DNA of 64,000 bases, taken from the NCBI RefSeq assembly GCF_030684315.1, contig NC_081394.1, positions 1,674,001-1,738,000 on the forward strand. Direction: 5' to 3'. This DNA is from Stegostoma tigrinum (lineage: Eukaryota). The notes below the pieces were generated by a model, which was not told the origin of the DNA, made no database searches, and was given only the letters and a program-made list of their open reading frames with translations. A program made the position numbers and the translations under genes. Shown piece by piece: positions 9,758 to 58,491 of this stretch (positions are counted from its first letter, which is position 1; every line of letters begins with the position of its first letter).

Positions 9758-9989
9758 ATGATAATGGAAACTGCAGATGTTGGAGAATCCAAGATAACAA
9801 GCTGTGGAGCTGAATGAACCCAGCAGGCCAAGCAGCATCTCAGGAGCACAAAAGCTGACGCTTCGGGCCTAGACCCTTCATCAGAGAGGGCGCCCCCCTC
9901 TCTGATGAAGGGTCTAGGCCCGAAGTGTCAGCTTTTGTGCTCCTGAGATGCTGCTTGGCCTGCTGTGTTCATCCAGCTCCACACTTTGT
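9758..9989. mobile_element. Fold-back pair of Neptune pLTRs nested in the Poseidon element, 14-bp TSD TACCATGATGCCAA
   Basis: Inverted arms around cgcc at about 9891-9894; TSD 9744-9757 and 9990-10003. Confidence 0.9.
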
Positions 9990-18887: not shown

Positions 18888-18927
18888 ATGTTCGGGAAAT
18901 ATCACTTGCTGTTGTCATTTCTACAAG
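18888..18927 (+). CDS. Gene A leader exon (exon 18846-18927): MFGKYHLLLSFLQ
   Basis: Acceptor ccctttctcttacag at 18845; donor CAAG|GTAATG, phase 1; joins V1 to give signal peptide MFGKYHLLLSFLQAGLA|QEW. Confidence 0.85.
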
Positions 18928-21900: not shown

Positions 21901-24900
21901 TCTTTGCCTCAGAGATGAGGAGATGATGCCTTGCAAGGATGCCCTCTTGGCTGTGGAGACAGAGAGTGTGCTGCGATTGGTTGTAGAAGACTAGGCATTG
22001 TTAAGGCTAAACTCAGAGTGCGATGATGCGCAATTAGACTGCAATGGGCAATGCTTCTTAACTGGTTGCTGCGACATTTTCTAAAATTCATTCACAGGAT
22101 GTGGGCATCACTGACTTGGCCAACACTTATTGCTGTGAGGGCAGTTTTGAGTCAACCACAGTGCTGTGTGTCTGGAGTCACACCACATAAATTTAGCAGT
22201 GTCCTTCCCCAAAGGCCATTAATAAACAGGTTCGGTTTTCCCTGACAATTGACAGTGCTTTCATGAGCACCATTAGATTTTTCATTCCAAATTTCTCTTG
22301 AATTCACATTCCATCAGCTGGCCATAGTGGGATTTGAACCTATTCCCCAGAGTCTCAACATTACAAGTGTAGCGGTAGTACCACTTAGCCATCAACTCCC
22401 CAGGCACACAGTTGGTTTCACCACAGGGTCGGTCCCGATCCTCGCTAGCAAGGGCAAAGAAGCTTGCTCCGTAGGGGTGAAGAGCTGAATATTAGGCATC
22501 CTACATCTACCCTGACTTGCTTGCCCCACTATAGGCGTCAACACCTCACTGACTCAAGTAATGAGTTGAGGACCAGGCTGGCAGGGTCAGGTGGCACAGC
22601 CTTCTCTGCCGGTCCCAGGGACATAGGCAGCCGTTGTCCTCAAAGCGGTCGCCAATTTCCCCTTGTCTACCTCACCTAGGGCAAAGGTGATGAAACATGT
22701 TCTAGACAACCACAGCTCAACTGGGTGAATGGTGGCCTTTTAAACTTGGTGGAAGACCGACTTCGCTAAACAGGGTCCTGAGGACCATGAGTGAATGTAG
22801 GATGAACTTGTCCACTCCTGCGTCCAGGATTGCCCTCCATCTGCTGTGTAACTTCGGAGAGCTCCTTGTGTGCCCTGTAGGTGGTCCATACAACACCCAC
22901 TGTGTACTAGTGACGGATGGAATGGATATTGAGTCTAGTGAATCCATAGGCCATCCAGAACTAAATACTGATATTTCTCTCCCCAGCTGGACTGGCGCAA
23001 GAGTGGAAAATCCACACTCCACGTGAGGTGACAACTCAGGAAGGTTCCTGTGCTCAGATTCCGTGTAATTATAGTTGTCCTTCACATCTGACAAACCAGC
23101 CGCGAGTCGGAGTCTGGTATTATCAAACAGGAATTAAAAGATGGTCAGTAGCCTCTCACTCCGAGAGTCTTAGTAATGAATCGCCACAGTTCCGCTATCG
23201 GACCTGGCTGTCTGGAGACCTGCAAGATGGAGACTGCTCACTGATTATAAACAACATCACACGGGAAGATGCAGGATATTATTATTTCAAATTAACATTT
23301 GTCGACAAAGTGAAATATAAATCCAAACCTGCAACTCAGCTTCAAGTTTCTGGTAAGCGCTGTGTAAATAATTACTCAAATTCACATCCTACATTCAATG
23401 GAAAATAATGCAAACTGAGACATTTCCAAATTAACACAAAACACAACCTGTTACAACTCAGTGATAATGGGAACTGCAGATGCCGGAGATTCCAAGATAA
23501 TAAAATGTGAGGCTGGATGAACACAGCAGGCCCAGCAGCATCTCAGGAGCACAAAAGCTGACGTTTCGGGCCTAGACCCTTCATCAGAGAGGGGGATGGG
23601 GGGAGGGAACTGGAATAAATAGGGAGAGAGGGGGAGGCGGACCGAAGATGGAGAGTAAAGAAGATAGGTGGAGAGAGTGTAGGTAGGGAGGTAGGGAGGG
23701 GATAGGTCAGTCCAGGGAAGACGGACAGGTCAAGGAGGTGGGATGAGGTTAGTAGGTAGCGGGGGGTGCGGCTTGGGGTGGGAGGAAGGGATGGGTGAGA
23801 GGAAGAACCGGTTAGGGAGGCAGAGACAGGTTGGACTGGTTTTGGGATGCAGTGGGTGGGGGCGAAGAGCTGGGCTGGTTGTGTGGTGCAGTGGGGGGAG
23901 GGGACGAACTGGGCTGGTTGAGGGATGCAGTAGGGGAAGGGGAGATTTTGAAACTGGTGAAGTCCACATTGATACCATATGGCTGCAGGGTTCCCAGGCG
24001 GAATATGAGTTGCTGTTCCTGCAACCTTCGGGTGGCATCATTGTGGCAGTGCAGGAGGCTCATGATGGACATGTCATCAAGAGAATGGGAGGGGGAGTGG
24101 AAATGGTTTGCGACTGGGAGGTGCAGCATGGCCTCCTGCACTGCCACAATGATACCACCCGAAGGTTGCAGGAACAGCAACTCATATTCCGCCTGGGAAA
24201 CCTGCAGCCATATGGTATCAATGTGGACTTCACCAGTTTCAAAATCTCCCCTTCCCCTACTGCATCCCTCAACCAGCCCAGTTCGTCCCCTCCCCCCACT
24301 GCACCACACAACCAGCCCAGCTCTTCCCCCCCACCCACTGCATCCCAAAACCAGTCCAACCTGTCTCTGCCTCCCTAACCGGTTCTTCCTCTCACCCATC
24401 CCTTCCTCCCACCCCAAGCCGCACCCCCCGCTACCTACTAACCTCATCCCACCTCCTTGACCTGTCCGTCTTCCCTGGACTGACCTATCCCCTCCCTACC
24501 TCCCCACCTACACTCTCTCCACCTATCTTCTTTACTCTCCATCTTCGGTCCGCCTCCCCCTCTCTCCCTATTTATTCCAGTTCCCTCCCCCCATCCCCCT
24601 CTCTGATGAAGGGTCTAGGCCCGAAACGTCAGCTTTTGTGCTCCTGAGATGCTGCTTGGCCTGCTGTGTTCATCCAGCCTCACATTTTATTATCCTGTTA
24701 CAACTCAGTGTCTGACTCTCAATAACCTGGCGATAGCTTCCAAAACCGTCCTAAGTGACATCCAATACTCCTGTTGATATCAATAACTTGATGTATTGAC
24801 TACGATGTCAGGTTATCTACTCCTATCCATCTCTTTAATTCTGATTAAAAGTCAGAAAAAGAATTTGTATTTTCATAGTGCCTTTTGCTACCTCACGACA

Positions 24901-27900
24901 TCCCACAAAGCATTGAAACAAATGCAGGCATCCTTTAAATGTAGAATCTCCCCACTCTCTGATTAAAGAATTTTCTCCTCAATTCCTGATTAGATTTATT
25001 AGTGATGATCTTATACTAACAGCCCCTAGTTCTGGTCTTCCACTCCCACAAGAGGAAATGGTGTCTCTGTATTTCATTTTAATACATTTATTGCCGGCTG
25101 GGCCAGCACCTATTGCCCAGAGGAGAGTTAAGAGTCAACCATATTGCTGTGGGCCTGGAGCCACATCTAGGCCAGACCAGGTACAGACATGCATTTTCAT
25201 TTCCTGAAGGACATTAGTGGACAGATGGGTTTTTCCTGACAATCAACAACAGATTCATGGTCATCATAAGGCTCTTAATTCCAGATTTTTTTTAAAAATC
25301 AGATTCAAATTTCACCATCTGCCATGGCAGGATTCAAACCCAGGTCTCCAGAACATTACCTGAGTTTCGGGATTAACAGTCCAGCGATAATACCACTAGG
25401 CTGTTGCCTCTCCAATCAAAATCTCTTTGAAATTAAAACCCCTCTAAGAGAAAATGGACCAGCCTTTCTTCCACTCCTGATAGGTTCACTCCTGCACTTT
25501 TGGGATCATCATCACTGATTATTTTCATACTCTTGCCAGTACCTCCATATCCTTTTTGTAATATGGAGACCAGCACTGCTTCCAGTATCCCAGGTGTCGT
25601 CTGACCAAGGTTCACAGCAAGTTTCACAGTGTTTCCTGACGTTTTCATTTTATCCCTCGGTATGGAATCACTAATGACTAGCTTGTTTGTTCATTTTTGT
25701 GACCAATGCTATTTCCATAAGGAGTGCTGTGTGTATATCAGCAAAATCGGAATGGTCCCTTCAAATATGCATCCAACAGCAAAGTGCTGGAATTCTAAAC
25801 ACTTGTAAATAAGGTCAAGAGGGCCAGAGTAATGAAACTACTTTGGAATGGTCATTATTCTATTAAACATAGGAGCAAAAGTAGGCCATTCAGCCAGTTG
25901 AGTCATTCAATGAGATCATGGTTGATCTGATAATCCTCAACTCCACCTTCATTTGTTTTCGCCATAACCCTTGATTCCTTTCCTGATTAAAAATCCGACT
26001 ATCTCAGCCTTGACTGTACTTAATTATCCAGCCTCGACAGCCCTCTGGTAAAGAGGGTTGACAGAGCAGATGTTACCCCTGAAAGCCAGTCTAGAATAAG
26101 AAGTAATAATATTAGACAGAGGCGTGGCAGATTTGAATCTATAGAAATCACTACCCTTGAGTATGGTGTCCACTGGGACACTGAATACATTTAAGAAGAA
26201 GGTAGAAAGATAATAATGGACTAAAAGGTTATGGAGAGCAGGGGCTGGGGAAGTGAAGTTGAGGCAAAAATGAGTCATGATTAGATTAAATGGCAGAGCA
26301 GTCTTGAGGGGCTGAATGACCTATTTCTGCTCCTTGTTATTATGTTTTAAAGAATTCCACAGTTTTACTATGCTTTTTGAGAAGAAATTCTGCCCCATTT
26401 GCTGTCCGCTGTTTTGTGAAAAGTTGCAACCTCACTATAAAAGCTGATGTGAAGAAGTTATCTATTAACTCAAATCCACCAGCTGCCAGTATCTCTCTCA
26501 AGATAACCAAGTCCCTTTTCTCGAATCATTACGTAACCCATGTAACCGACAATTGATTACCACCCAGCTCCATTTTAACTTCCGAATGCTGTAAGCGAGC
26601 ATTGCACAATTCACCAACCATACATATACCAGCCCATGGGGAGGAGAGGAGTTATTCACAAAATAATATGACCAAAGGAAGCCTCTATTAAGGGACAAAG
26701 AACAAGGGAAGTGAGATTTTCTGAATAATCATAAAGTATAGTCATATAGAGACCTAAAGATGGAAGTAAGCACACTGGAACACAAAGGCCCTTCTGGTCA
26801 AGGGTGGAGAACTGCTAAATATACCATTAAAAAAGAAATCAGGATATCATGGGACTATCATCTTGACCAACTGTGTCAGTGGTGTGAGGAATGGCCGATA
26901 GACTTTAACTTAGATAAATGCAAGCTGTTGTGTTTTGATGGGTCAAACCAATAAATGCTAGGGTACTGTCCAGAACGTACAGCTGTAGGGGTACAGGTTG
27001 ATAGCTCCTTGAAAATGGAGTCAAAGGTAGACAGGGTGGTGAAAAAGGCTTTCAGCATGTTAGCTTTCATCTGTTAGATCACTGAGTGTAGGAGTTGGGA
27101 TGTCTTGTTGCAGCTGTACAAGATGATGGTGAGGCCACATTTGGAGTATTGTGTGCAGTTCTGATTGCTATACTATACAAAGGATATTATTAAACTAGAA
27201 AGAGTGCAGAAAAGATTTACTGTGATGTTACCTAGACTAAATAATTTGAGTTATAAGGAGAGTCTAGATAGGCTGGCACTTTTTTCCCTGGACCATAGGA
27301 GACTGAGGGTGAGGGGGATCTTATAGATAACATCATGAAAGGCATTGATAATATAGTGGAGAGCTTTGTCAAATGGTCTGGGAATCAAAAACTAGAGGGC
27401 ATAAGGTGAAAGGGGAGAGATACAAAACACATGGTTGGGCAATGTCTTCACACACAGGGTGGTGAGTTAAATGTGAGGCCAGAGGTACTGGAAGAAGTGA
27501 GTACAATTATGTCACTTAAAAATACATTTTGTCATAGCTGAGGTAGGTATAGAGGGGTGTAGACCAAATGCAGGCAAATGGGATTAGATTAATTGTGAAA
27601 AATAGGTGGGATGGACAGGTTGGGCCGAAGGGCCTGTTTCCATGCTGCAGGCCTGTTATGACTGTGTGGATGCTTGGAGAACTGAAAGACCATGGATTGA
27701 GGCAATTTCAAGTTATTTTTCTGAGAGATAGAATACAGAAAAATTGACAGTTGACTGTGGTCAGGACTGTGAGGTAAAACCCTCAGAGACAAGCAGATTT
27801 TGAAGGATTGTGGGTGAAATGTGTTGCATGTGTACGAGTGGTTGATCAACCAATCACTGAAAACTGGACAATGAGGTTGACCCATCAAGGTCTGATCACA

Positions 27901-30900
27901 TGTAAACAGGAGGGGGTTATGAAAATATGCTCTAAGTTCATGGCTAACTTGCTCAGTTAGTATGATCAGGTACTTGGAGAACATCCACTCCAATCCAACT
28001 CTTGGACAATCCAATCCAACAGGCAACCCAATTCACATGGACACCTGCACATATCAACTGCAGGATTAAGATTTTGGAAGCATTAAATAAGCTTGCTTGT
28101 GTGACTAATCTTGGTAGATTTGAGTTGTTAATGTGCAGAGTAAGCTCACAGGCCAAGGGCAGTCTAAAACAAAAAGCCGCTGGTTGATTGTCTGCAATGC
28201 AGCATTATCCAAACTTCCATCTTCCAGTTTACACTTGTAAACAGAGGTACACAACTCTTATAGTGTGCTTCAACGGTGTGCCTTCATGCCATGGGCACTA
28301 TTTTTAGTGATGGCACCCACCCGTCTCCTGCATTGGGAGCAAATAGTTTGTTTAAATAATCCCTTTATTCACTTGCATCACTACTTTTAGTGATGAATAT
28401 AGTTGTCTAATCGCCTTATTGATAACCAACATCCCTCCTTTTCGGAATAAGTGTATTTGTCATGCAGATTCTGTTACTCTTCAACCCCACTTAGACTCTT
28501 GTTTTTAGCACATTTTGCAAGCTCCATATTTTTCCACCTCAATGTTGTACATTAGATTGATTATTGAGAAAGTTCAATTCTAAATCTATTCTGTAGGATT
28601 ATTGATATCATTCTGTAACTTATTGGAGTCCTCTTCAGTACTGACCATTCACCCAATCAAGACTTATCTGTAAATTTGGAGTCTAGTGGATCTACGAGCT
28701 ATCTGTTTCTAAGCACTAATGCTTTTTTTTAAACTAATGCTTCTTTGCCCAGCTGAACCATCACCAGAGTGGAAAGGCGACTCTCTTGGAGAGGTGACAG
28801 TGCAGGAAGGTACCTGTGCACAGATTCCATGTCGTTACAATTATCCATCGTGTCTGGAAAATCGACCACGAGAAGGCGTTTGGCTGAAATTTGAAAGCCA
28901 GACGGTCTTGTCTAGCGTAGCCTTTCACTCCAAGGGTCACAATCATGAATCACAAAGGTTCCGCTATTGGACCCAGCTGTCAGGAAGCCTGAAAGATGGC
29001 GACTGCTCCCTGATTATAAACAACATCAGACGGGAAGATGCCGGCCATTATTTTTTTAAAATAGAATTTGACGACGGACCTAGTCATAACCTGGCTTCAT
29101 GTTTCTGGTGAGTGTTGTGTTGGAATTACTCAGCAATTCTCTCAACAGTCAATGGGAAGTGACACAAAATATGGCGTTTACATATTAACACAACGTACAG
29201 CTTCTGATAACACAGTGTCTGATTCGATTGGTACCAAGTGGTCAGGCTCTGGACTTTGTTCTGATCCTGGCAGACTGCACCACATGACAAATCAGATCCC
29301 ACAATAAAACCTGGCTTGGTGGACATAAGTTTAAATCTTTGAAGTTGGTTAACGTGTTGGTTAGCCGCTAAAGCACAGTCACACGAGGCTTCAGTTTTGC
29401 TTCAAATAGAAAAACAAAATTTATCAAAGGCTATATTCCAGTTACAAATCAATGTGACAACCTGTTTCCCAACATACTCTGTTACAGTGACTCAAACTCC
29501 TATCTCAACTCTTTAAATTACTGCCTCCATCCAGTTTCCTTTATTCAAATTATGAAGATAAGTTTACAAATCCTTTGAGTTCAGTGGCATGAACCTTTCA
29601 CAATTCTAATGGCTTAAACACTTTTTAGTTTCACACAACCTAAAGATTTCCATCTCACATCTCCTGGCTTGAAAGCTTCATAAACTCACTATGGTGACAG
29701 GTTACCATTAAACTGAACTGAAAATTAAATAAAAATCGCTGATAAAGCTAAAAATAACTTCTGCTAAGAATAAGTCTGTTCCCTTTTGAACAGAACACTT
29801 GTTACCTTCTAAACTGAAGTCATAACAAAACTAATGGCTTTGCTGAGTTTACACAGCATGTCATGATCTCAAATTGACAAATATCTTATTCCATTAACAT
29901 TGCAGGGATCAGCCAGACATTTAGCTGGGGGATTTAGGCGTGACAATGCTATGATTTTAAGAGGTTATTTTGACCTGTAATTTTTTTAAGGAGAGGTTTT
30001 AAGAGGTAGCGAGCTGTCCAGTTGGAATACCAGTAAAGTGAACAGATGAGCAACCTTAAGTTTTTTTTTAATGTGGAACAACAGAAGCAGCCTGAACGGG
30101 TGCATCCAGCTCTCTCAGACAAGTTTTCTAGATCTTTTTAGTTTTAAGGTTTAGCTGTGAGCAGTTCTTGTTGGAGTTTCAATAGGGTAGGTGTTGCTGG
30201 AGTTTTGAATAAGTAGAAACTATCTTCTCCCTCTCTCGGTTACAGCTAGAAGCTAGGGTTTCTCTCTGCTGCTGAGTTATGTGTGAGAGAAATGTATTTT
30301 TCTGAATTTGCCTTTTTGCCATGGGTTGTGTTTATGGGATGGTACTATATTTGAACAGTTAATTAGTAGTAGTTAGTGTCTATTATTCTGTTAAGTTTTC
30401 CAATAGAGGTGTTATTCTGAGTTCTTCTTTCTTTCATTGCATTTTAACCATAGTGTTTAAATAAATTATGTTTTGTTTAATGTCAAGTTGTTTGACCAAA
30501 CAAATTGCATCTGGATCACAATACGTTACATTTACCTTTAAAATGAGAAAAAGAGTTAGGATCTAGGCTACCTTCTTGATCTGGTCTTATGGTCCATTAT
30601 TAGGTTACTGCTGTAGAATGACTTTCTGATGTTTTTAACATTAGCTGTCATGGAACTAACCCAAGTCTATTTCCTGCTTTTTTGACATCTAGATCCATCT
30701 TAATCATTATATAATTTTTATCACAGTTAATAGTCCAGTGACATTACCACAGCAGTGCCACCTCCTAATGAACTGAGCTTCTGAATTTCTGAAGAAGAGC
30801 CTGTCAGCCCCTGCTCCTCTGACGCTGCTTGGCCTGTTGTGTTCATCCAGCTCTACACTTTGTTATGTGATCTCCCAATCTATTTACTTTGTCCATCAAT

Positions 30901-33900
30901 GTTAGCGCCTTCCATTTATCTCTGTATTTATACGTTGAACATGGAGATAAGTATCACTACAATGTGTCATCGGAAATCTCTATTCAGAGGGTGATCAGCT
31001 GAATATATAATAATAACTTGAACTATTTGAAAGCAGAGGTGACTAGCGGTGGCAGTACTACAGAATGTTACATTTGCAAAAGGCACAAGCTGCTCAACCG
31101 AGTCAGTAAGTCTGCAACACTTTCAGAGAGAGATCACTTGACATGGTTTTTTGGGGTAAAGTAGGCTTTGAATACAGAAGATCCCACAGGGAAATAGCCT
31201 TTGCGTTGCTTCCTTTTCTGAAAGTTCTTTCCTCACAGTTTGTGATGTGAAAGAACACTGGAAAGCCTCATCAGCACAAGTGGATGGCTCTTAAATGAGA
31301 AATCGGAAATGGAAGGGATCACATTTTTACATTATGAATTAGAAAGTGAAATGGAAGTTAGACTCTGCCTTACAGCTGAGATGTCAGGAATAGACAAACC
31401 AAGTGGCACTCATTTTCAGCTGTGCAAGTTGCTTTTTGGACCAGTGTCAGCAATATTTTGAGTAAAGGAAAGACTTCCTGAAGATAGACCTGGAATGGGC
31501 TGAGCTGCCGTTTGCTGCAAATCTATAAGTGCAGGGTAGCTAGTGACATCCAGACCCTGCGAATTATAAACAGAACTCTCTCACCTCTTCTCTCCTTCTG
31601 ACTGAAAAGACAAGAAAACAAGAAAGCTTAAAAGAAACACTCTAACAAGTAAAAGTCTAAACTCTAACAAGTTGAATCAACTACTGAACTAAAAAATGAC
31701 CATCATTTTACAGACAATAGCATGTCATCATTCTCAATCAAAAAGGACTGAGAGAGACAATTTAAGCCAGATTTGTGTTCTGGTCTTTCAATTTTCAGAA
31801 TGTTCTTCCCTGTCAATGATTTTGTTTTCCACCCAAAATATCTGTTCAAACCATCTGTCTTTTGTTTGCCTTAATCGTGAAAAGGTGTGTGACTGTTGGG
31901 GTTTTGTAGGTACATAGCTTTGTAGGTACAAGTTAAAAAGTAGTGGGCTTATTGTTATTTTCTTTCCTTCTCTCTTGTTTATGGTAGAGTATGTCACAAA
32001 TAAATGGAGCTATTTTCTGTTAATGACAAAACCTGGTGTGAGTTGTCTCTGTCCTTAACAACAGTCAGTCAGGCAAATTGGTACCATAAGTGGGAATTTA
32101 TATGTTTTGCGATGGCTTGTAGAACGGTGGAACATGAATATTGGTGCACACTTCCCAGTTAAGTTATGACAGAAATTATTGTTTCTAGATAAAGAGTCAT
32201 CAACCAGCCATAACTGATCTACAAATATGCCTCAGCGCAAACAGGTTGTGTGGAAAGCAGCATGGGCTGCAGATCGACGCTTGGGGCAATCTATGACTTA
32301 AGTACATTTTTAAATGTAGCTGTTACTAGACCAAGCTATTTCTCAAATAAAACTTTGCAGAGAGCCATTGTGTATACTTGTGTGCACGTGTATGCGTTTT
32401 CGTTTTAATTGAGGAGTGGAATTGGAAATATTTACACTTTTTAAGCCTTTTGTTAATATCATTTTGATCTTTGGCTGAGTAAGATTCTTTGCAATAACTT
32501 GGTTATTTTATGGAACCTGGAGGATTTGTTTTTGATCCTAACCTTTATGCAGATTGATTATATATATAATATGTTCTTGTGAATTAAGGCAAAATCATGT
32601 GGTCAGAAGAGGAGTGCAACAAGGAAATAATCAGTTCATCCCTTCCAACTGAATTATAACGCAAAAGAAAGGCTTGCATTTCAATAGTGCCTTTTACCAG
32701 CTCAGGATGCCCCACATTGACTCTCAGGCAATTAAGTAATAATTTAACTGTAGTGGCACTGCAATACAGGAAACATCAGAGCAAATCTGAGAAAAGCAAG
32801 CTGCCATACACAGGAATGAAATAAATCAGCCAGTCTATCAGACCATGAGAAGCCAGTGAATACGATGGTGTGATGAGCTCCTGCGTCTTCATTCAGGATT
32901 AGCAATCACAGTGTCTTGGAATGAAAGTGTATTAAGCTGAGGGAAAGATACACTGTCTAAAAAGATGAAATTATTTTGAGATGTTTGTAACCTCATGGTG
33001 ATGTAATCATTATAAACCTGCTTTCTTTTGTGGTACTGTGACTTCTATTTGAGCTGATGCTTCAGGTTATATTTATCTAAAAGGATCCTCTCCCTGTCTT
33101 TAGATTTCACAGACAAACCAATGATACTCCCAGTGGAAATTATCGCAGGAAAGCATGTGAGCCTCAGGTGCACCTTCAACACAACGTGCAATGGAATACC
33201 ACCTGTCTTAACTTGGGACATTCCCACTGCTATACATGGAACAGTTTCAGAAGCTATTACACAACATGGTGTCACTCTGACCTACACTTCCATCCTGAGC
33301 CTGATACCATGGCGAAGACACCACGGACAGACTCTTACCTGCAGAGTAGGTTATCCGCATGCTTCATCAGAGCAGACCCTTGTAATAAATGTGCAATGTA
33401 AGTACCAATGCAGCGTTTCCTCAGCACTGACATTCCGACAGTGTGGCGCTCCCTCAGCACTGACCTTCCGACAGTGCAGCACTCCCTCAGCACTGACCCT
33501 CCGAGAGTGCGCCACTCTCTCAGCACTGATCCTCTGATATTGCGGCACTCGCTGAACACTGATGTCCGACAGTGCGGCGCTCCCTCTGCACTGATCCTCC
33601 GACAAAGCAGCGCTCTCTCTGCACTGACCCTCCGACAGTGCGGCGCTCCCTCTGCACTGACCCTCTGGTGCTATCTGCCTTCTGTACTGATTCCCTGAGC
33701 ATTTTGCACTCCCTTAGAATTGATGAATTTTGAGACCACCCCTATGAATTTGCTGCAGCCTCTCATTTTTGACTGTCAAATATGGATAACATATTTGGTG
33801 CCAAATTAACCCAGATTGATATTATATCTTTCACAGTCTTTGGGTCTAGCACAGACTCTTGCTTTGCTATGTGATTGCTCACAATATTCTCTTCTTTTGT

Positions 33901-36900
33901 TTTCAGACACACCAGAGAATCTTGCAATTACTTCCCTTGATGGGTCAAAAGTTTCTTCAATCAATATAATTGAGGGAGAGTCTGCAGTGATAATCTGTTC
34001 TGTCGAGAGCTTCCCAGCTTCTAATCTGATGTGGAGACATCTTAATGTCACAATCAGCAGAACAACTTCTAACAATGAGCTGCGGTTGGTGATTTCTTAC
34101 ATTACATCCAAGGACACTGGAGACTATCAGTGTGTGGCAGAGAATGAGCATGGAGCAGTGATGGGCTCCATAACCATTACTGTGCAACGTGCGTACATGC
34201 CAACTTCTATTTCTCTGACATGGTTCGAGGGACAAGCAAAAACACACAAACACATCAATGAAATTCACAGAAAGAAAAACAATTGAAAGATCATATATAA
34301 TCATGCATGCATAAACTGACTCTCTGTGATTAATCTTGTCCAATATTTACGTTACTTTTATTATTTTGAAGCAGAGAGATTATGGATATGAATCAGTCCT
34401 CATAAGGGCTTCTTTGTCACCAGAATATAATTTCGGAATAGTTGTGTCTCAGTATCAATTCCCAGAAATCATGTGACTGCAAGTGGTGGCCTGGGACAAC
34501 CCCTGTTGTGTTAATGGATGAAATAGTTGTTCTGTTGAGTTTATAACAGGCAAGATAAATGTATTATGGCTCTGTGTTTACTTCTGACTTAAGAACAGAA
34601 ATTCAAAGTGCGAGTTGATACACACCAGAGTTGAATTCAGAAGGTCGAACAGATTCACCTGGCAGCGGATTCAGTGCAATTCAGTGGGAACTATCAGCGC
34701 AGCGTAAGAGATTTGTAGTCTGTGAAGCTTCTTATCCAGGAGAGTTTGAGTGGAAATCATCAACTGTTTAAAATTGAACAGGTTCAGGCCTTTGTAACTT
34801 TGAGAGGCTTACCACCAACAACATTGGAAAGAATCATAAAATAAATGTCACACTTCAGGGTAAACATTGTCAGTAAACTAATGATTAAAGAGCAGAAAAG
34901 GGAATGATACGTCTCTAGAATTGAGTTTATAGCGATGGTGTGGTGAAAGAGGCTGAAACTTCGTTTTGATGATTATGTTAAGAGCTTTCTCACTATTTTC
35001 TATATAAATGTAGCTTTCTTTGAGAGTAGAGAGCTTGCATATTTGTGGAAAGTCACATTTTGTCAAAGCTTTTCACCTTACACTCATCAGGACAGTTTAC
35101 GAGAATACAAATTCAAGGAGGAAACCAACCTTTATTGTGCATGAGAGGAGAGTTCCAATTAGTTGACGAATGGGCTCTTATTGGTAGTGGTGTTGTGATG
35201 GAAAACTCATCCACTCATAGAGTCGCACAGCATGGAAACAGACCCTTCGGTCCAACTAGTATATGCCAACCATAATCCCAAGCTAAACTAGTTCCACCTA
35301 GCTGAATCTTCCCAAGCTGGAAAGGGTTCAGAAGAGATTTACTCACGAAAGGAGGGTTTGAATTAGGTGGATCTAAAAGAGACATGAGGACAATTTTTTT
35401 ACATAGTTGTTTGTATGTGGAAATAATTTCCAAAGGAAGCGGTAGATGGGGTTACAGTTACAACATTTGAAAGACATTTGGATAAGTACACGAATAAGAA
35501 ATGTTTGGAGGGATAATTATGTGTATCTAATTATAATATTTATCTGCTATAATTGACAGTTTCATCCATTATACCGTTTGTCACTCACTTTATCTATTAC
35601 CCTTTGTAAGTTGCATCTGTCTTCCTTATAACTTACTTTCCTACTTATCTTTGTGTCAAAGGCAAATTTAGTTGATATACCTTGGATTCCTTCATCCAAA
35701 TCGTTTACAGAAATTGTAAAGAGTTGAGCCATAGTACCTGTCCCTGTGGCACACCACTCATGATAATCTGCCAACCTGAAAAAGACCCATTCATTCCCAC
35801 AAAAGAACAAATTGCTGGCAAATCTCAGTAGGCCTGGCAGCATCTGTGGAGAGAAAGCAGAGTTAACATTTCAAGCCTAGGAACCCTTCTTCAGAATTCC
35901 TTTATCAGGGTGATATTGCAGTAAGATGTTGACTGTCCAGGATAGCTGTTATCCTGCAGGATGGCATAGATGCAATCTTTTTTAGCCTCAAACTTCCACA
36001 ATGAGCAAAAGCATTGGACCCTATTTACAAGAATAGGATCTGATCCATTACAAGAATTTTCATGAAAGAGGGATGACTCGTGGTGAGTTTAACCCGAGGG
36101 TCAGCACACCTCGGGGAAGTGGAGATGCTCAGAAGATTGGACTCCTATAAAATTGAACCTGTGCTGTTGGTTCGATGTGCAGCACAAACCAGGCACCCAG
36201 TCAACTGAGTTAACCAACCCACAGCATCATCTGCGGTTCCGATGAAAGTCTCGCCTCCTCAAACATCCCCCCTCGCCTGAGGCCTGGTGATTCTCATCTT
36301 AAACTCACCACCAACTGTTTTGCTCTAATGAGACATCAATCCTATGGTCCTTTGGGACAATGATGACTGACACACGCACACACACACAGTCTCACACTCA
36401 CACGGACACACACACACTCTCACACTCACACGGACACACACACATTCTCACACACGCACACTCTCACTCACAAACACACACACATACACTCTCTCACACA
36501 CTACTAGAAATGTGACATCGCACTTCAGATTGAGATGAACGTGACAAGAGGTCCATTCACATAGCAGATTCAGAGAGAGATGAAATGAAGGGTAATAGGC
36601 CTGAAACATCAAACTTCCTGCTCCTATGATGCTGTTTGGCCTGCTGCGTTCATCCAGCTCTACACCTTGTTATCAAGAATGGAGTCTTGTTGTGCTGCAT
36701 GACTGCTCACAATATTCTCTTCCTTTGTTCTTAGATGCACCAGAGAACCTTGCAATTACTTCCCTTGATGGGTTTAAAGCTTCATCAATCAATGTAACGG
36801 AGGGAGAGTCTGCAGTAATAATCTGCTCTGTTGAGAGCTTCCCAGCTTCTAACCTAACATGGAGACATTTTAATGTCACAATCAACAAAATAAGTTCCAA

Positions 36901-39900
36901 CAATGAACTGTGGTTGGAGATTCCTCGCATTACGTACAGGGAGACTGGAGACTATCAGTGTGTGGCAGAGAATAAACATGGAGCAGTGGAGAGGTCCATA
37001 ACCATCACTGTAGAATGTGAGGCTACTGTTACATTTGTTCCTTGTTGCAATGTCTTTAGGGGGGCTGTTATCATTGTCTTGTTTCTTCTCTCGATTTCTT
37101 CAAGCCTCCCTCATTCCATGGCTCCAATGCTACCCACCATCCAATTCTTCTTCATCCTTTTCTGCTTTCACCCCCAATTTCTCCAACAATTGTTGCTGAG
37201 ACAAAGGTGGTTTTTCATCTCCATGTCCGCACTTATCTGTCTGTCTCACTTTAACTGGACGTAATGCTCCTTTTTGACTCCTGACCTTCAAATCTTTCTC
37301 TAAGGCACTTGCTTGGCTTGTTCTCTATTGAGGTGAATCTTGGCATCCTCGGCCATACCCACATTTCAAAAACTGTCACCCTCCTCTCATCCACTTTCTT
37401 TAGAATCTGACTCTCAATCCATTAAGTGTGACCCTCCACATTAGTGACCGTACCTGACATTTCCTCAGCTGCAGGCTGATGTTTTCAGATGCTCAGAGTG
37501 AAGCCAGTGGTCGCAGTGCTTGCTGTTATTTTTCTAGTCCTCATGTAACTTTTGATGTTGACTGTTGTGTCAAATATTGAAATTTGACCACTGTCCCAAC
37601 CTTGATATCTCCATTGCCATTTAGAGTCATTATGTTGGCTGTTGCCTCATTCGTATTCAGTTCAAATGTCTCCCTGTGTCTTTTGCCTGGGTCCACCATA
37701 CTCTCCAGTTCCTCATTTATTCCATTTCTGTCTGAGGTATTGTCTGCACACCAGATATTCCACAGCCACATCTTTACAACATTTACAGTGCTTGTGACAG
37801 GGATATGAATATGTGTAAAGACAGATACGGATACTTCAATACAATTTCCTTTCGCAAGTCACTCCTTATATTAACCCTCAGTGGCCAAAAATATCCTTGT
37901 CTGAAGGAGATGACAAACAAGACAACAAGATGTAGGAGTAGAAGTAGTAGTTCAGCCCATCAAGTCTGCTTCTCTGTTTTTCGAGATCGTGGCTGACCTG
38001 AAAATGCTCCAATCCACTTTCCTGCCTTTTCCTCCATAACCCCCGATTCCCTTACCAATTAAAATGCTGTCTATCTTAGCCTTGAATACATGTAATAACC
38101 TGGCCTCAACAGCCTCCAGTGGTAAAGAATTACACAGATTCACTACCCAAAAGAAAAAAAAATCTTGCTCTTATCTGTCCTAACTGGGTAACTCTGTACT
38201 CTAAAATTATGTCCCTCTAGTCCGAGACACTCCCAGAAAGGGAAACAAACTTTCCACATCTATCTTGCCAAGCCCCTCAAGTTTCCTACATGTTTCATTG
38301 AAGGTTGCCTCTCATTCTTTGAAACTCCAGTGTGTACATGCCGAAGCCACCCAACCTCTCCTCATAAGACAATCCGTCCATACCTGGGATCAGTTGAATG
38401 AATCTTCTCTGGACTATCTTCACTGTAACTTTACTGAAATAAGGGGACCAAAACCAAGATAAGGCTCCCGAAACTATTCATTATGTTCTAGATGTGATCT
38501 GACTTTTTTTAATAGTTTCAGCAAACACCCCCACATTTTACTACTCCATTCCTTTTGAAATAAAGAGCAATATTCCATTTTCCTTCCCTATTACATGCAG
38601 AGTTTGGATACTAGTTTGTTTGGAGATGTATACCTGAGTACCTCCAAATCCCGCTGTGTTGTAGCTTTTTGCTTTTTATATGATATTCAGCTCTTCTATT
38701 CTTTCTGCCAAAGTGCACACTCTCACATCTTCTCACATTATGTTCCACCTGCCACATTTTTGCAAACAAGCTTACCCTGTCTGTAAACGTCTGCAGATTC
38801 TTTGTGCTATCTTCACCACTTGCCTTCCCATCTATTCTTACATTGTTCCCAAATTTGGTTACAGTACATTCACCATCATCATGTATTCCATTAACATTTA
38901 TTGTGAATAATTGTGCCCCCAACATTGATCCTTGTGATATTCCACTTGTTATAGACTGCCATGCTCAAAATGCCCCTCTTCATCCTAACTCTCTGTTTTC
39001 TAATAGTTAGCCAGTCCTCTATCCATGCAAATTTATCATCTCCAATACTATGGGCTGTTATCTGCATGAGTGCTATCTCATCATGCACCTTCTGAAAATC
39101 CAAGTGTATTACACCCACTGCTTTTCTTACATCTATTGTACTTGTTACTCCCTCAATGAATTCTGAGATATTTGGTAGACATGATTTCCTCTTCCTTAGG
39201 ACATGGTCATTCTGCTTGATCATTTTTTGTTTGTATTTCTCAATATTCTACCATTACAGCATTTCAAATGGACTTGAACATGTTCCTAATAATGATGTTC
39301 TCTAGGTAGGTCACAGTTATCTAGTATTGGTCTCTTTCCATTTTACAATAAAGGCATTACGTTGGCGGTATTCCTATCCTCTGTAACTTTTCCAGAAAAT
39401 GAGCAAGGGATTTCAGAGCTTAGGGCTGCAGGTAGTTGAAGGTGGATCAATGGATATCAGGAAATACGCAGGAAACCAGAACTGGAGTGTAGAGATCTCA
39501 AAGGATTATGGGGCATGTGGATTCCCTGCTGATGCTCCTCTGCTCTTGTTCCAGATCCCCCACGGGAGACCACAGTGTCCACCAGTGGAGCCTCAGGTGG
39601 GATCAGAGAGGGACACAATGTCACATTAACTTGCTCCAGTGAGAGTGTCCCACCGATATCTCATTACACTTGGTTCAGGGTCAAGGGAAACACCAGCACC
39701 CGGTTAAACTCAAGCAGCCAGATTCTCTCCTTCACTCCAGTGACTCGGGGAAATGATGCAGGTTTCTACTGCACAGTGACAAACCCACTGGGTAACAGCA
39801 GCTCCAGCATGACCCACCTGAATGTAGAATGTAAGTTTTTTTCTGTCTGCCTGCCTCTTAACACTCGGGGTATCTGTGTGGGAACCACTTACTGACTGTA

Positions 39901-42900
39901 CTTTAGATGAGAGTAACCTCACTGCAAGAACCTTGCCCTCACTGAGATACAGAGAGCGATACCAGGATTGGCGACGAACAGCTCAAAGAGGGATGGTTTT
40001 AAGTGGTATCTTCAATGACAACATAGAGACAGAGAGAATAGTGGAGAGGTTTAGAAGGGAAATAATTAGCCTAAGGGTCACGGCAGCTGAAGACCTGGCT
40101 GACGGATGGAAATCAGAGGATGCTTGAGAAGCCGCAATTAAAGGAGGCAAAGGGACCTCAGAGGGTTGAGGGGAACTGGAGGATGTTACAGAGATAGGGC
40201 GGGGATGTAGGGGCTGGAGGAGATGACAGATCGGGAGGCGTTTGGGGTCTGGAGGAGATTACAGAGATAGGGAGGGTATGTAGGGGTTGGAGGAGTTAGA
40301 CATAGGGAGGGGTTTAGGGGCTGAAGGGGGTTACACAAATAGAAGGGGTGTAAAGGCTGGAGGTGGTTACAGAGATAGGGAGGGGGTGTAGGGGCTGGAG
40401 GTGTTACAGAGATAGGGAAGGGTGTAGAGGCGGGAAGTGTTACAGAGATGGGGAGGGGTGTGTTCAGATGAGGGAAGGGGCTAATGGTTGAACAGGACTG
40501 GAATAGCTAGATGACTGACTGGCCAGGAGGGCATTGTGATGATGCTCAGTAATAGCAGGAACTGTGACCATTGGCAAGTGTTTTAATGTTACGGTTCTAT
40601 CGTACGGCCCAACTCTGCTACTCTTGACTAATTGCTGCTCTTCCCACCTCAGATAAGCCAGAAATTTCCCAGGCGTCGAAATGTGCTCAGCGGGCAGAGG
40701 GGATCACCTGTGTCTGTGCAGTCAATTCCAACCCTCCTGGAGACCTCACCTGGCACCTGCCTCATACCAACCTCAGCGGTAACCAAACACAGGGAGGTTT
40801 TGTGTCGCTGCAGCTCAGAGAGGGACATCTGGTAACAGGCTCCCTGTTCCTGACAGGACCCCAGGATGATGAGGAAGTGACGGTATCCTGCTCAGTTCGA
40901 AACCTACATGGGACAGCCACGTTCAAGGTCTATCAGGTCAAAGGTGGGCTCAATCTGGGGAGGCGATGGCCCAGTGGTATTATAGCTACTGTTAATCCAG
41001 AGACCCAGATAACATTCTGGGGCCTGGGTTCAAATCCCACATGGCAGATGGTGGAATTTGAATTCAATAAATGTCTGGAATTAATAATCTAATGATGACC
41101 ATGAATCGTCAGGGAAAAACCCATCTGGTCCACTGATGTCCTTTAAGGAAGGAAACTGCCATCCTTACCTGGTCTGGCCTACATGTGACTCCAGACCCAC
41201 AACAATGTGGTTGACTCTCAACTGCCCTCTGCGCAATTAGGGATGGGCAATAAATGCTGGCCAGGCCAGTGATGCCCTCATCCTGTAAATGAATGAAGAA
41301 AACAAAAATCTCTGTTTGACACCCTCAACTCTAGAATCCTCTACTTCTTTTAGATGTTCTTTCCTACTGGCTCTTTCACCAACGCATCCTCATGATAAAG
41401 ATAGCACTGGATACAATTTGAGTCAAGCCATTGAGGGGAAAATGTCAAGCACTTTCTTCACACAAATAGGGGTTGGAAATCTGGAACTCTAACCATCATA
41501 TCCCCCGTCCCCAAAAAAGTCTTTCATTGCGAATAAATATGGATGAGTCAAATGTAACTACTGCCAATAATTTAGAAGTGTAATCGGTGATTTTATTGAA
41601 GTTTTGATGATATTGAGGTGACCAGAAGTAGGTGAATTAAGAGAAACTGTTCCCGTTGACATGATATCCAGGACTTAGGCAGTCTAAACATTGGAATAGG
41701 CCCTTAAGCAGTGAAATGTGGAAGCACTTCTGCACACACACTCTGGTCAAAGTTTGGAACTTCCTTCCAAAATTGGCGATTGGTCCATTGTTAATTACCT
41801 CAGCCACTGAAGATTAGTGAAGGTAATGATTTATCTAGACTCAAAACACTAGTTTACTGTCTCTCTGTGGATGCTGCCTGATCTGCTATGATTTCCAGTA
41901 TTTTTTGTTTTCAGTAATGATTCCTCTTGATTGTTAATCTGTGAGTTTGTAAACTAAATTTCTCAAATGCGAAGGGAGGAATGTTGATCAAAATCTGACA
42001 CATAAGCTTATTGTTTCCTTAGGTTTATAAATTGACGCATAACATATAAAAGTAAGGAAGTGATACTACACTTCTACAAATCATTGGAGTATTGTGATCA
42101 TTTATGCGCACTTTAAGAAATAATGTTCAAGCCCTGGAGAGAGTTCAAAGGAGATTTACCAAAATGATACCCGGAATGAGCAATTTTTGATACAAGGAAA
42201 GATTAGAGAAATTGAGCTCATTCTCGTTGGAACAGAAAGAATTTAAGAGGTGACCTTACCAGGGTGTTCAAAATTACAAACAACTTTGACAGGGTAAAGG
42301 AGGATAAACTTTCTGCCAGATGATATGGCAGTAATTATGAGTCACAATTTTACGATTATCAGCAAGAGAGTTACAGGTGAGAAGAGGAGGAATTTCTTGA
42401 TTCAGAGAGCTGTTAGGATTTGGTATGTTCAGCTGGAGAGAGTGGTGGAGGCAGATTTCATAGGACCTTTCAAAAGAGAGTTGTAAGACAACAAGGAGAA
42501 GGGGAGCAGTCAACACAGGACTGAAAGAGTTGTACATTAATGCAGATGATGTATGAAACAAACCAAATGAACCTGTTGGTGCAGATTTAAATTGGCAGGT
42601 ACAATCATGTAGGTATGAAGTTAATCAGGTTTGGGAACTAAGGAGACAAGTCTTATCGAAAGGACAAGGCAGAAGGACAGAGAAGGTGGGTTGCCTAGTT
42701 TGTAAGGAATGAAATTACATCGATAGCAATAAATGATATGGGGTTGGAAAACGTGGAATTTGCGTTAAATTGAACTTAAAGTTGAGAAACTGCCAATGAA
42801 ATGAGTCCCCGATGGGAGTTATGTAGAGGCCAGAATTCCTTTCAAAAATCAGGATGTAGGGAAGAAAATAAATCAGGAGATAGATAAGGCGTGAAGAAAG

Positions 42901-43726: not shown

Positions 43727-46700
43727 GGGGGGGGTGGTTGGGGCAGGGGGGTGCGGGTGGTAGGGAAGAGGTGAGTGTAGTGGCCATCATTAAGGAGGAG
43801 GTGCTGGGGAAGCTGAAAGGTCTGAAGGTGGATAAATAATCTGGACCAGATGGTCTGTACCCCAGTGTTCAGAAGGAGATAGTTGAGGAGATTGTGGAGG
43901 GATTGATGATGAGCTTTCAGTAATCATTGGAGTCGGGGAGGGTCCCAGGGGACTGGAAAGTGGCTCATGTAACCTCACCCACTTGTTTAAGAAACAAGGA
44001 AGACCGAAGGCCAGCCTGACCTTGGTCATTGGTAAGATTTTAGACTCTATTACTAAGGATGTAATGCAAAGTACTTGGTCGTACGTGGCAAAATAGGACT
44101 TAATCAGCACAGCTTCGTCAAGGGAAGGCCATGTCTGAGAAATCTGTTGGAATTCTTTGAACAAGGAATGAACAAATTAGAGTAAAGGAGAGCCAATGGA
44201 AGTGATTTATTTGGATTTCCAAAAGGCCTTTGACAGGAGGCTGCTGAATATGATAAGATAAGAGCCCATGGTGTTAGGGACATGGCACAGCATGGATAGC
44301 AGTACAGAGGTGTACTGCTGACGCTGTGTACTGCTGACGCTGTGACTGGCTAGCAGAGACAGAGGGTGCAGATAAATCGGTCTTTATCAGGACAGCAGCA
44401 GGTGACTAGTGGAGTACTACAGGGGTCAGTGTTGGGACCACAACTATTTATGCCATGTATTAGTGATTGGGATGAAGGAACTGAGTGCACTTTTGCTCCA
44501 TTTGTAGATGACACAAAGATAGGTGGCGGCACAGGCAGGGTTGAGGAAGTGGGGAGGCTGTGGAAGAATTTGGACAGGCCAGGAGAGTGGACAAAGAAGT
44601 GGCAGATGGAATACAATTGGGGAAAGTGTGAGGTTGTGCACTTTGTTAGGAGAAACAGAGGTGTGGACTATTTTCCAAATGGGGAATCACTTTGGAAATC
44701 TGAAGCACAAATGTACTGAGGAGTCATTGATCAGGAGTCTCTAAGGTTAACGTGCAGATTCAGTTGGCAGTTAGGGAGGTAAATGCAATGTTAGGATTAA
44801 TTTTAAGAGCGTTAGAAGAGCAGAGGTGTACTGCTGACGCTGTATAGGATTTGGTCACACCATTTCGAATATAGAACATATTTGGAATATTATGAACAAT
44901 TTTGGCCATGTATCTAAGGACGAATGTGCTGCTGTTTGAGGGGGTTGATGTAGGGGATGACAAGTTTATCATATGAGGAATGGATACTGGATCTGTACTC
45001 AATGGAGTTTAGAGGGATCTGATTGAAACTTACAGAATGCTGAGAGGCCTGGATAGAGTGGAAGTCAAGAAGATATTTCCACCAGTGGGACAGACTGCGA
45101 CCGGACAGCACAGCCTCAAGAGTGAAGGGATGACCCTTCAGAATGGATAATGAGGAGGAATTTCTTCGTCCAGATGGTAGTTAATCTGTGGAACTCATTG
45201 CCACAGAGGGCTCTGGAGATCAAGTCATTGAGTGTATTTGAGACAGAGATAGATAGGTTATTGATTAGTAAGGGGATCAGGTGTTATGAAAAGAAGGCTG
45301 GGCAATAACGTTGAGAAACATATCAGCCATGATCGAATGGTGGCACAGGGCCATCAGGCTAAATAGCCGAATCTTGCTCCTATGTCTTATGATCTGATGA
45401 TCTACCAGTCAGTCCCGGATGTTTCAATAAGGTTGTTTCTCATTCTTTGAAACTCCAGTGAGTAAAGGCCCAACTTATGCAGCTTCTCCTCATAAGACAA
45501 TCCCTCCATATCACGTATCAGCCAAGTGAACCTTCGCTGGACTGCCTACAGTTCCGGTCTGCCTTTCCTCAGATAAGAGGACCGAAGCAGCACATTGTAT
45601 TCCACCTAGGATCTGCCAAGTGCCTTCTATAGTTTTAGTAAAACCTCCCAACTCATACACTCCATTCTCTTTAAAATGAAGGCCAACATTCCATTTACCT
45701 TCACCTGTTACCTGGTGAACTTGGATGCGAACTGAAATAAGGCTGTCAGTTTGTGGACAGCAAGATCCCAAAGCAACAACGTGATAATGAGCTGACAACC
45801 AATTGCTTTAGTGAGCTTGTTTGTTGCACGGACAAAGATGGCAAGGTGGGTCACTAATGTCCCATTCGTGAAGGGAATCGGCTGTTTTATTCCAGTCTAT
45901 ATGTACAGGCAACTCGTCTCAAACTCCAGTGAGGCTACCTCATAGTGCTCCTCTGAACTCGCCTGTCAGTTTGTGTGGTTCAGGAAAACACCACCACGCC
46001 ACCTTCTCAAGGGGCAATAAATGCCAACGTTTCTCGAGAATAACTGTTTAAATGTGGAGTGAATTGTTCCTCAATATACAGCAGGCCATTGTTCCAAAAT
46101 GATAGCACAGTATTATTGGTTACTTTTTCAGGCAGAGACTACAATAATTGGACATTGGGATTCATCATGACTGGAAGTGTGTTAAGTGTTTTCCTGGCTG
46201 GAATCTTATTCTTTCTCTGTGCGCGCAAGTAAGTGTGAATGCTTCATTTGATTTCACTCTGAATATTCAGTTCCACTTTCTTCTCTATAGCTGGTAACTG
46301 TTCCCTTGGGTTGAGGCAGCAGACACTTCTGTAAGTGGTCTCCATGTCCCTATGACCCAGGGAGGGCCTTTCATTGTGCATCCAGATGAATAACTACGAG
46401 TTGTTGTGATCTAGAACACGCTGCCTGATAGGGAGGTGGGAGCGGATTCAACAGGAACTTCCAAACGTGTAACTGTGTCTCTGCTGCACTGACTCTCTGA
46501 TGTACAGTAACCACACTGAAATATTGTGTTCTTGCAGGAGAAAGACAGCAACTGAGGTGACAGCTTCAAAGACCAATGATGTTGCAGTGACCTACAGTCA
46601 AATCACTGTGAAGTGCAAGGTGCAGAAATTTTTGACTCATTCCAAACCATCTACTTCAGCATGTCCCTGACAAACAGTTAACCACTGATTCTCATCTCTG

Positions 46701-56931: not shown

Positions 56932-58454
56932 GTAAGTCTCATACAATCCTTTCCTAACATACAGGCACAAAAATGAATCCTGCTCCCTTTCATAAACAGG
57001 GCCATTTAATTTCCCTACTATCAACATCCTGAAGGTTACCATTGACCAGAAACTCAACTGGGCTCACCACATAAACACAGCGGCTACAAGAGCAGGTCAG
57101 AGGCTGGAAATCCTGCAGCGAGTAACTCCCGTCCTGACTCCCCCCAAAGCCTGTCCCACCATCGACAATACACAAGTCAGGAGGGGGATGGAATATTCCC
57201 CACTTGCCCTGGATGGGGACAGCTTCAATAACACTCAAGAAGCTTGACACCATCCAGGACAAAGCAGCCCCACTCAATTGGCTGCACATCCATAAAACAT
57301 CCCATTCCCTCCCCCCCACCGATGCTCAGCCACAGCAGTGTGTATCATCTACAAGATGCTCTGCAGTAATTCACCAAAGATCCTCAGGCAGCACCTTCCA
57401 ATCCCACGACCTCATCTATCTAGAAAGACGAGGGCAGCAGATATTTGGGAACATCAGCCCCCTGCAAGTTCCCCTCCAAGCCATTCACCATCCTGACTTG
57501 GAAATATGTTGGCAGTTCCTTCACTGCCACTGGGTCAAAAACCTGGAACTCCCTCCCTAAAGGACATTGTGGGTCAACCCTACAGCACATGGACTGTAGC
57601 GGTTCAAGAAGGCGTCTCACCCCCACCTTCTCAAGTGGGCAACTCGGGACAGGGGCAATAAATGCTGGGCCCAGACAGCGACGCCCACATCCCAGAACAG
57701 AATTAAGAAAAGGCTTTGAGATAACAAGGTGTACAGCTGGATGAACACACCAGGCCAAGCAGCATCAGAGGAGCAGGAAAGCTGTCGTTTTGGGTCTAGG
57801 CTGATGCTGCTTGGCCTGGTGTATTCATCCAGCTCTGCACCTTGTTATCTCAGATTCTCCCGCATCTACAGTTCCTACTATCTCCAGCAACCTCTGTTTG
57901 TGTTCCTGAATTACAGCATCCACAGTTCTTTCGGTTTTTATCATGCACATTCTTACTGAGGGGCAGAACATGCTGGAAGTGCCTCCTCCTGCTCACATTC
58001 CTTCTGCTTTTCTTAAATCTTCCGCAGTTGCTGTCTGCATGCAGTGGAGAGTTCATTACCCACCGAGAGTGATTGGCCTGCAGAATTCCTGTGTGCTCAT
58101 CCCATGCTCCTTCGACTACCCGAACCATGAAGAGAGCGGGCAGCTTACCATCACTGGCATTTGGTATCACGGAGTGAAACAAAGCAGAGTCACTGTGTAC
58201 CACTCGAGATCCAGCACTCAGATGAATTCAGCCTACGTTGGCCGGACCGAGATCATTGGAGACCTCAGCAGGCAGAACTGCACCTTCAAAATCCAAAACC
58301 TGCAGCTCAGTGACCAGGGGAAATACTTCTTCCGTTTTGAGATCAGAGAGATTGGCAACTGGGAGGACGTACGGGGCATTATTCTCAACGTCACACGTAT
58401 GTTCACACCACCCCACACCCCCCTCCCTCCCGGGGGAATACACAAAGTCCAAAG

Positions 58455-58491
<37 letters not shown>

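Follow-up and report, generated by a model that had tools for sequence, protein, structure and literature searches.

The arginine (Arg) on strand F of the Siglec V-set (V) domain is described as essential in a review that also lists its mutation among evolutionary responses (PMC13358205; papers are cited by PubMed Central (PMC) number). It has been lost naturally in human Siglec-XII (R122C), great ape Siglec-5/14 (Arg to His or Tyr) and SIGLEC17 (Arg to Trp) (PMC7379906, PMC6288428). Exchange for lysine (Lys) in human Siglec-9, R120K, serves as a non-binding control (PMC11884560), and this mutant retains partial T-cell inhibition, for which the authors invoke residual binding or tonic signalling (PMC12596597). 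Many human Siglecs also bind 6-O-sulfated glycosaminoglycans (PMC13331776). Here we describe gene A, a Siglec-like gene of the zebra shark, Stegostoma tigrinum, which has Lys at this site in both of its V exons. The gene lies in a stretch of 64,000 nucleotides (nt) that was analysed as a whole (the window; RefSeq assembly GCF_030684315.1, contig NC_081394.1, positions 1,674,001 to 1,738,000 of the forward strand).

A paper on bony fish reports fish genomes without inhibitory CD33-related Siglecs, and sharks are absent from its main text (PMC7226832); the whale shark genome paper mentions Siglecs once, in a list, and its supplements may list these genes (PMC8455134). No paper on shark Siglecs with Lys in place of the essential Arg turned up in a search that fell short of most subscription journals, the home of older Siglec mutagenesis and evolution work. 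Our tentative reading, which we put at a little under an even chance, is that gene A encodes an inhibitory receptor whose pocket is weakened and may prefer dense anionic ligands, and that this state is tolerated among Arg-bearing paralogues.

Lysine at the essential arginine site of gene A

A six-frame scan re-found the motifs on which the sequence-only reading had been built, namely DAGYYYFK in the first V exon of gene A (V1; motif from 23268), DAGHYFFK in the second (V2; from 29037) and DQGKYFFR in the downstream gene B (from 58312). The last codon of the motif is AAA in V1 (23289..23291, plus strand) and in V2 (29058..29060, plus strand), and CGT, for Arg, in gene B. In alignments the V1 Lys, residue 115 of the precursor, has Arg97 as its counterpart in mouse sialoadhesin and the Arg of strand F in Siglec-5 and CD33. 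Gene A thus has Lys115 in place of the strand-F Arg that marks Siglecs.

The domain that carries Lys115 is of the Siglec type. Its best match among solved structures is sialoadhesin (E 1.5e-12), with Siglec-5 and CD33 among the best PDB sequence matches, and Pfam reports V-set and Ig_CD22 on gene A. A predicted V1 model, folded with 36 relatives (predicted local distance difference test, pLDDT, 88.9), has sialoadhesin as its best Foldseek match with a template-modelling (TM) score of 0.88, and Siglec chains occupy the top ranks. In the alignment W20, K123 and Y124 of V1 occupy the positions of sialoadhesin W2, R105 and W106; W20 and Y124 we take to be the two binding aromatics, after the role of sialoadhesin Trp2 and Trp106. 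Cys35, Cys40 and Cys97 align with sialoadhesin cysteines, and the following domain, d2, has the extra Cys, a pattern that predicts a B-E intra-sheet pair and a V-d2 pair. V1 also has an extra unpaired Cys44 at a position where the family has Tyr (109/117); the whale shark has it too, it completes an NYS-C context for an N-glycan sequon, and dimers could form through it.

Further residues around the site are altered in the V1 domains of the zebra and whale sharks. Both have T117 in place of the Glu two residues past the site (Glu in 108/126 domains) and S126 in place of a G-strand Tyr (Tyr in 110/125). The net charge of the F-G segment is +4 in the zebra shark and +6 in the whale shark against a family mode of -1, and a charge of at least +4 was seen in 4 of 126 domains. 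The sequence of this segment in V1 holds no other Arg that might compensate. It is conceivable that the V1 of these two sharks was rebuilt as a Lys-rich, Glu-free face for sulfated or polyanionic glycans or for a protein, and not for single sialic acids, with Lys selected rather than tolerated, within an undescribed family of paired receptors with up to seven V domains. We regard this as unlikely; if true, a carpet shark Siglec would read a different self or microbial signature, and would offer a natural case of selected Lys at an 'essential' site.

How common Lys is at this position was read from relatives in sharks and rays. These came from two longer-protein searches (62 and 63 matches), a short-protein search (3) and a search of representatives, of whose 956 matches 150 were listed. 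Duplicate entries, bird proteins (five), RefSeq copies of the window's own genes and domains below 40 bits were removed, and 156 weaker further domains were also left out. The resulting set of 127 V domains, which includes V1, V2 and gene B of the window, has 112 Arg, 13 Lys and 2 Tyr at the site, the Tyr rows being distant, and Lys is the only replacement among its closer members. The distant V domains with Tyr belong to P0072 and P0076 (sawshark, sevengill shark). Nineteen further, more distant domains (from 16 hand-picked high-scoring proteins, among the matches listed) have Arg in 14 cases, Lys in two, and Ser, Glu and Gly. All four other zebra shark family proteins that were retrieved (named in records) keep Arg, as do the three additional domains of the short-protein search, which returned no domains from nurse shark or wobbegongs.

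These counts bear on the idea that Lys is near-neutral in the shark scaffold and that sialosides are bound normally. It would fit six Lys origins with the remaining pocket kept, and K123, at the position of sialoadhesin Arg105, could add charge. The prevalence of Arg (112/127) argues, however, that Lys is not freely exchangeable, and the same change in human Siglec-9 is used to abolish binding (PMC11884560). A neutral exchange seems very unlikely to us.

The family itself is expanded in sharks and rays (P0001-P0085), with 1 to 7 tandem V domains per protein, seven in basking shark P0001 and six in cloudy catshark P0069. It includes receptors with Tyr-motif tails and others, in the great white shark, two catsharks and the brownbanded bamboo shark, whose tails are short and whose membrane helix holds an Arg, which is the make-up of paired receptors. 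Among P0004, P0065 and P0091, a devil ray receptor with four V domains has Arg, Lys, Arg and Lys in turn, and a relative has Arg, Lys, Ser and Lys. No paper on this expanded, multi-V, paired family was found in the literature searched.

Probable separate origins of the lysine codons

A tree of the sixth immunoglobulin (Ig) domain (d6), transmembrane and tail parts groups gene A with one protein each of the whale shark, the epaulette shark and two bamboo sharks (support 95/96). The whale shark orthologue has Lys in both V1 and V2, both in frame. The epaulette shark orthologue has Arg in V1 and Lys in V2, as does that of the whitespotted bamboo shark (a partial model), and the brownbanded bamboo shark has Lys in V1 in a model without V2. 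For the V-domain tree the trait column was removed, 42 of 146 rows were used, and the partial V2 was left out; its bootstrap had not fully settled. On this tree the orthologue V1 domains form one group (100/97), in which zebra plus whale shark (Lys) are sister to the epaulette (Arg), whitespotted (Arg) and brownbanded (Lys) domains. The orthologue V2 domains form another (99/95), within a V2-type group (88/87, not starred) whose other members, from lamniform and carcharhiniform sharks, have Arg. V1 and V2 thus come out of the trees as old, separate lineages. A quick tree of all 146 rows, built on few columns for so many rows, requires no fewer than six Arg/Lys changes, of which one falls in the great white shark and two fall in devil rays.

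The sequence-only reading had proposed that the change to Lys predates the V duplication and was kept since. The V1 Arg of the epaulette and whitespotted bamboo sharks and the Arg of V2-type domains outside the orthologue group speak against this. That reading had also named Arg in close relatives as an outcome that would speak against it, and alignment of relatives gave just this: V1 is Arg in 2 of the 5 orthologue species, so Lys is not fixed. In the approximately unbiased (AU) test, a single clade of zebra and whale V1 and V2 was rejected (p=0.021). A wider carpet-shark V1 and V2 clade was not rejected (p=0.067); it would hold Arg members, so that even there Lys would not have been fixed since before the duplication. 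That V1 and V2 exchanged the Lys codon by conversion in recent times is unlikely, as adjacent codons differ on either side; an old conversion may have occurred.

The simplest account is one gain of Lys in V2 and two in V1; change counts alone cannot separate gain from reversal. At this site a zebra shark paralogue, seen in a loose end in run contigs, has AGA, so that Lys is one transition away. We suppose that this transition, AGA to AAA, occurred separately, once in the V2 lineage of the orthologue group and twice in V1. Lys accounts for 6 of 9 non-Arg events, an excess over the expectation for an AGA codon with p-values of 0.010, 0.025 and 0.13 under three mutation models. It is suggestive, not proof, that the charge at the site has been kept.

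Repeated change at one site also invites a different explanation, in which sialic acid was abandoned for a protein or microbial ligand and the repeated loss of Arg let the receptor evade sialylated pathogens, an idea already put forward for the paired Siglecs of primates. By parsimony the last Arg was lost twice (zebra and whale shark; brownbanded bamboo shark) in an orthologue that is still open. The brownbanded bamboo shark has a near-identical Lys V1 both on the Tyr-motif receptor P0025 and on P0026, which has a short tail and a membrane Arg, and this is the paired pattern; great ape Siglec-5/14 without Arg are likewise paired (PMC7379906, PMC6288428), and Siglec-6 binds through an Arg-independent pocket (PMC10122656). 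An abandoned pocket, however, predicts that other residues would be as common as Lys, whereas closer relatives show Lys alone, and W20 and Y124 are retained. We consider such a change of ligand a minority possibility, somewhat unlikely but worth keeping in view.

The encoded receptor and the decaying V2 exon

Eleven exons of gene A with AG/GT ends were mapped on the plus strand. The leader exon (18888..18927; ATG, signal peptide, phase 1, GT donor) is the start of RefSeq XP_048379701 and is followed by V1 (22987..23352; 366 nt, in frame), V2 (28753..29107; AG/GT sites intact) and the C2-set exon d2 (33104..33397), which carries the second Cys expected for the V-d2 disulfide. Then come the Ig exons d3 (33907..34188), d4 (36735..37016; a duplicate of d3), d5 (39555..39830) and d6 (40653..40943), a transmembrane exon whose helix has no charged residue (46132..46228), and two cytoplasmic exons (46538..46619, with VTYSQI; 47208..47444, with LVYANI, IEYAEI and then the stop). 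With V2 left out, the other ten exons (leader-V1-d2-d3-d4-d5-d6-transmembrane and the two cytoplasmic exons) give 748 open codons, and the product is identical to XP_048379701 of Stegostoma tigrinum. It has six extracellular Ig domains, one of them a V domain, and a single transmembrane helix. Each of the three Tyr motifs of the tail has Ile last, and they fit the wider form of the immunoreceptor tyrosine-based inhibitory motif (ITIM), which ends in Ile, Leu or Val, but not its strict signature (below). The whale shark orthologue is likewise open, with 81-94% identity per exon (8 exons compared in frame).

RefSeq holds three isoforms, X1 to X3 (XP_048379701, XP_048379703 and XP_048379705), of which the first is this same 748-residue protein, and V2 is missing from all three. 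Their name, 'sialic acid-binding Ig-like lectin 11', is automatic only, and the Lys goes unremarked in it. Gene A is a Siglec-like receptor by descent, as is Siglec-XII, to judge from its sequence, and a candidate sialic acid lectin at most.

V2 measures 355 nt, compared with 369 nt in the whale shark, and is 14 nt short near 29086-29090. Because of this frameshift the 748-residue frame is open only when V2 is skipped. If V2 is included, a stop follows straight past the splice to d2 (codon 254), which rules out an intact receptor with two V domains for this sequence; if V2 replaces V1, the stop at codon 132 likewise rules out its use instead of V1. Of the earlier description of an intact receptor with both V exons, the open frame is real and the part concerning V2 does not hold. 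One RefSeq isoform has its start at a d2 Met, and might stem from a frameshifted transcript that includes V2. V2 further has Trp at the position of a structural Arg (Arg in 122/126 domains), and zebra-derived changes number 12 in its 112 residues against 3 in the 121 of V1 (Fisher p=0.014; 4 and 6 ambiguous differences are left out). By these comparisons V1 is still constrained. The claim that the Lys change was retained accordingly survives for V1, with its open frame, its Lys common to the whale shark and its fewer changes, and fails for V2, which is frameshifted and has lost the structural Arg. As read from this sequence, gene A gives a receptor with a single V domain, V2 being a decaying exon that is likely skipped. 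A 1.2-kb palindrome of a repeat element (23493-24697; near-perfect, 96%) lies 140 bases past the V1 donor site; it could influence V1/V2 splicing or be an inverted retroelement dimer.

The state of V2 raises the question of plain decay, with gene A a redundant copy losing function in a birth-and-death cluster and Lys the easiest conservative step from AGA, the codon that the paralogues use. V2 is frameshifted and fast-evolving, neither brownbanded bamboo shark model contains it, and the whitespotted bamboo shark model has it in part; a broken inverted paralogue lies at 7.7-11.5 kb of the window, and V1 itself has 8 departures from conserved columns. Against this, ten exons with 748 codons are open in the zebra shark, the whale shark orthologue is open too, and derived changes are fewer in V1 than in V2. 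Decay of the whole gene appears improbable on balance. The broken paralogue, on the minus strand, consists of a d3/d4-like piece and a d5 piece joined to d6 through a deletion (7737-8216 and 11261-11534), and a smaller palindrome lies at 9795-9991.

Both Lys codons were also sought in other zebra shark individuals. Some or all V1 words are contained in 8 of 11 sequencing runs, four of which were compared on V2. Single-copy contigs of runs X1 and X3 span the V2 Lys codon, with 2 and 1 differing letters elsewhere, which are silent; the V2 Trp and other decay changes are in these contigs as well. Over 28917-29075, V1-derived contigs of runs X1, X3 and X5 and the window V1 each depart from V2 at 30 places, and V1 Lys is thus probably present in three samples of two studies, one of which could be the assembly source. 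The bisulfite run X9 gave 4 partial reads only. An assembly error at the Lys codons is excluded, since the whale shark has Lys in both V domains and the run contigs agree.

Gene B (58042-62300) follows on the strand of gene A, ~10.6 kb further downstream. Its V domain (58042..58392, approximate limits, plus strand) is sialoadhesin-like with Arg kept, and its best match is sialoadhesin (E 1e-21), which makes it a distant comparator and not a close paralogue of gene A. Mammalian SIGLEC1 sits apart from the CD33-related cluster.

A proposed weakened pocket in the light of known Siglecs

Our tentatively favoured reading, a weakened pocket on an inhibitory receptor, would work as follows. Lys would make one charge contact with the carboxylate instead of the two-point bridge of the guanidinium group, and affinity would be lower. 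The missing +2 Glu and the Lys-rich F-G hairpin of the zebra and whale shark domains may together favour densely anionic ligands, either sialic acids in clusters or sulfated sialoglycans. Recruitment of SHP-type phosphatases by the tail would persist, and inhibition would be reduced or tonic. Ordinary sialic acid sensing would be covered by the Arg-bearing paralogues, so that the change was tolerated and the spare Lys-bearing V2 decayed.

Several observations weigh against this reading. The two other domains with an F-G charge of at least +4 carry Arg. The Lys-rich hairpin is tied to only one of the six Lys origins, the brownbanded bamboo shark V1 having a charge of +2 and V2 and the ray Lys domains showing no raised charge. 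Zebra shark V1 deviates at 8 of 61 family-conserved columns, including the new free Cys and a Phe-to-Ser change at a column with Phe in 120/124, and these departures would also fit relaxed constraint. The Lys excess is not significant under the G-to-A-biased mutation model (p=0.13), and residues other than Arg and Lys (Ser, Glu, Gly) stand at the site in 3 of the 19 more distant domains. None of the three tail motifs matches the strict ITIM signature [I/V/L/S]xYxx[L/V] (PMC7226832), and the four orthologues all have a degenerate middle motif.

The V2 frameshift has a caveat of its own. Precisely where the deletion lies (29086-29090), contigs of runs X1 and X3 stop following the window sequence from either side and run on into 20-31 different letters, with no bridging piece among those listed; these animals may have the 14 bases or a longer insertion, and the V2 frameshift may be an allele.

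The overlap of these contigs is a separate observation: it misfits a simple restoration of 14 bases if contigs share no 31-mers, and a longer insertion allele at 29086-29090 is therefore possible.

Arg is held to be indispensable and Arg to Lys is a standard laboratory knock-out, yet this family gained the same change about six times. Natural Arg/Lys orthologue pairs (epaulette versus zebra shark; whitespotted versus brownbanded bamboo shark) could gauge binding and signalling with Lys, and the shift in specificity brought by neighbouring residues. In addition, the locus suggests that sharks have a Siglec-like cluster that is expanded, paired and multi-V, whereas bony fish are said to be without inhibitory CD33-related Siglecs (PMC7226832). 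If binding is simply reduced or lost, this would be the ordinary birth-and-death of an immune cluster, like that of primates.

Compared with the V-set domains of sialoadhesin (Siglec-1), CD33, Siglec-5 and Siglec-7, V1 shares the fold (TM 0.78-0.88), the Cys pattern and the aromatics of strands A and G; it differs by Lys for Arg, Thr for Glu at +2 and the extra Cys, at 22-30% identity in structural alignments. Engineered Siglec-9 R120K has the identical substitution at the same site of an inhibitory Siglec, but is a laboratory mutant without a basic hairpin. The non-canonical glycolipid pocket of Siglec-6 is a precedent for ligand binding without the canonical Arg, although Siglec-6 retains its Arg (PMC10122656); the second Arg that matches this pocket is uninformative in V1 because it is common to all Siglecs. 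The Arg-mutant primate Siglecs resemble gene A in that the essential Arg was lost naturally in an otherwise open immune Siglec whose cluster also contains frameshift alleles and paired receptors (PMC7379906, PMC6288428). Their changes are non-conservative and abolish binding, whereas the shark change is to Lys, arose about six times and spared both aromatics. Within the literature searched, no report turned up of Lys recurring in an expanded shark family of paired, multi-V receptors; natural loss of the Arg is already known from primate Siglecs.

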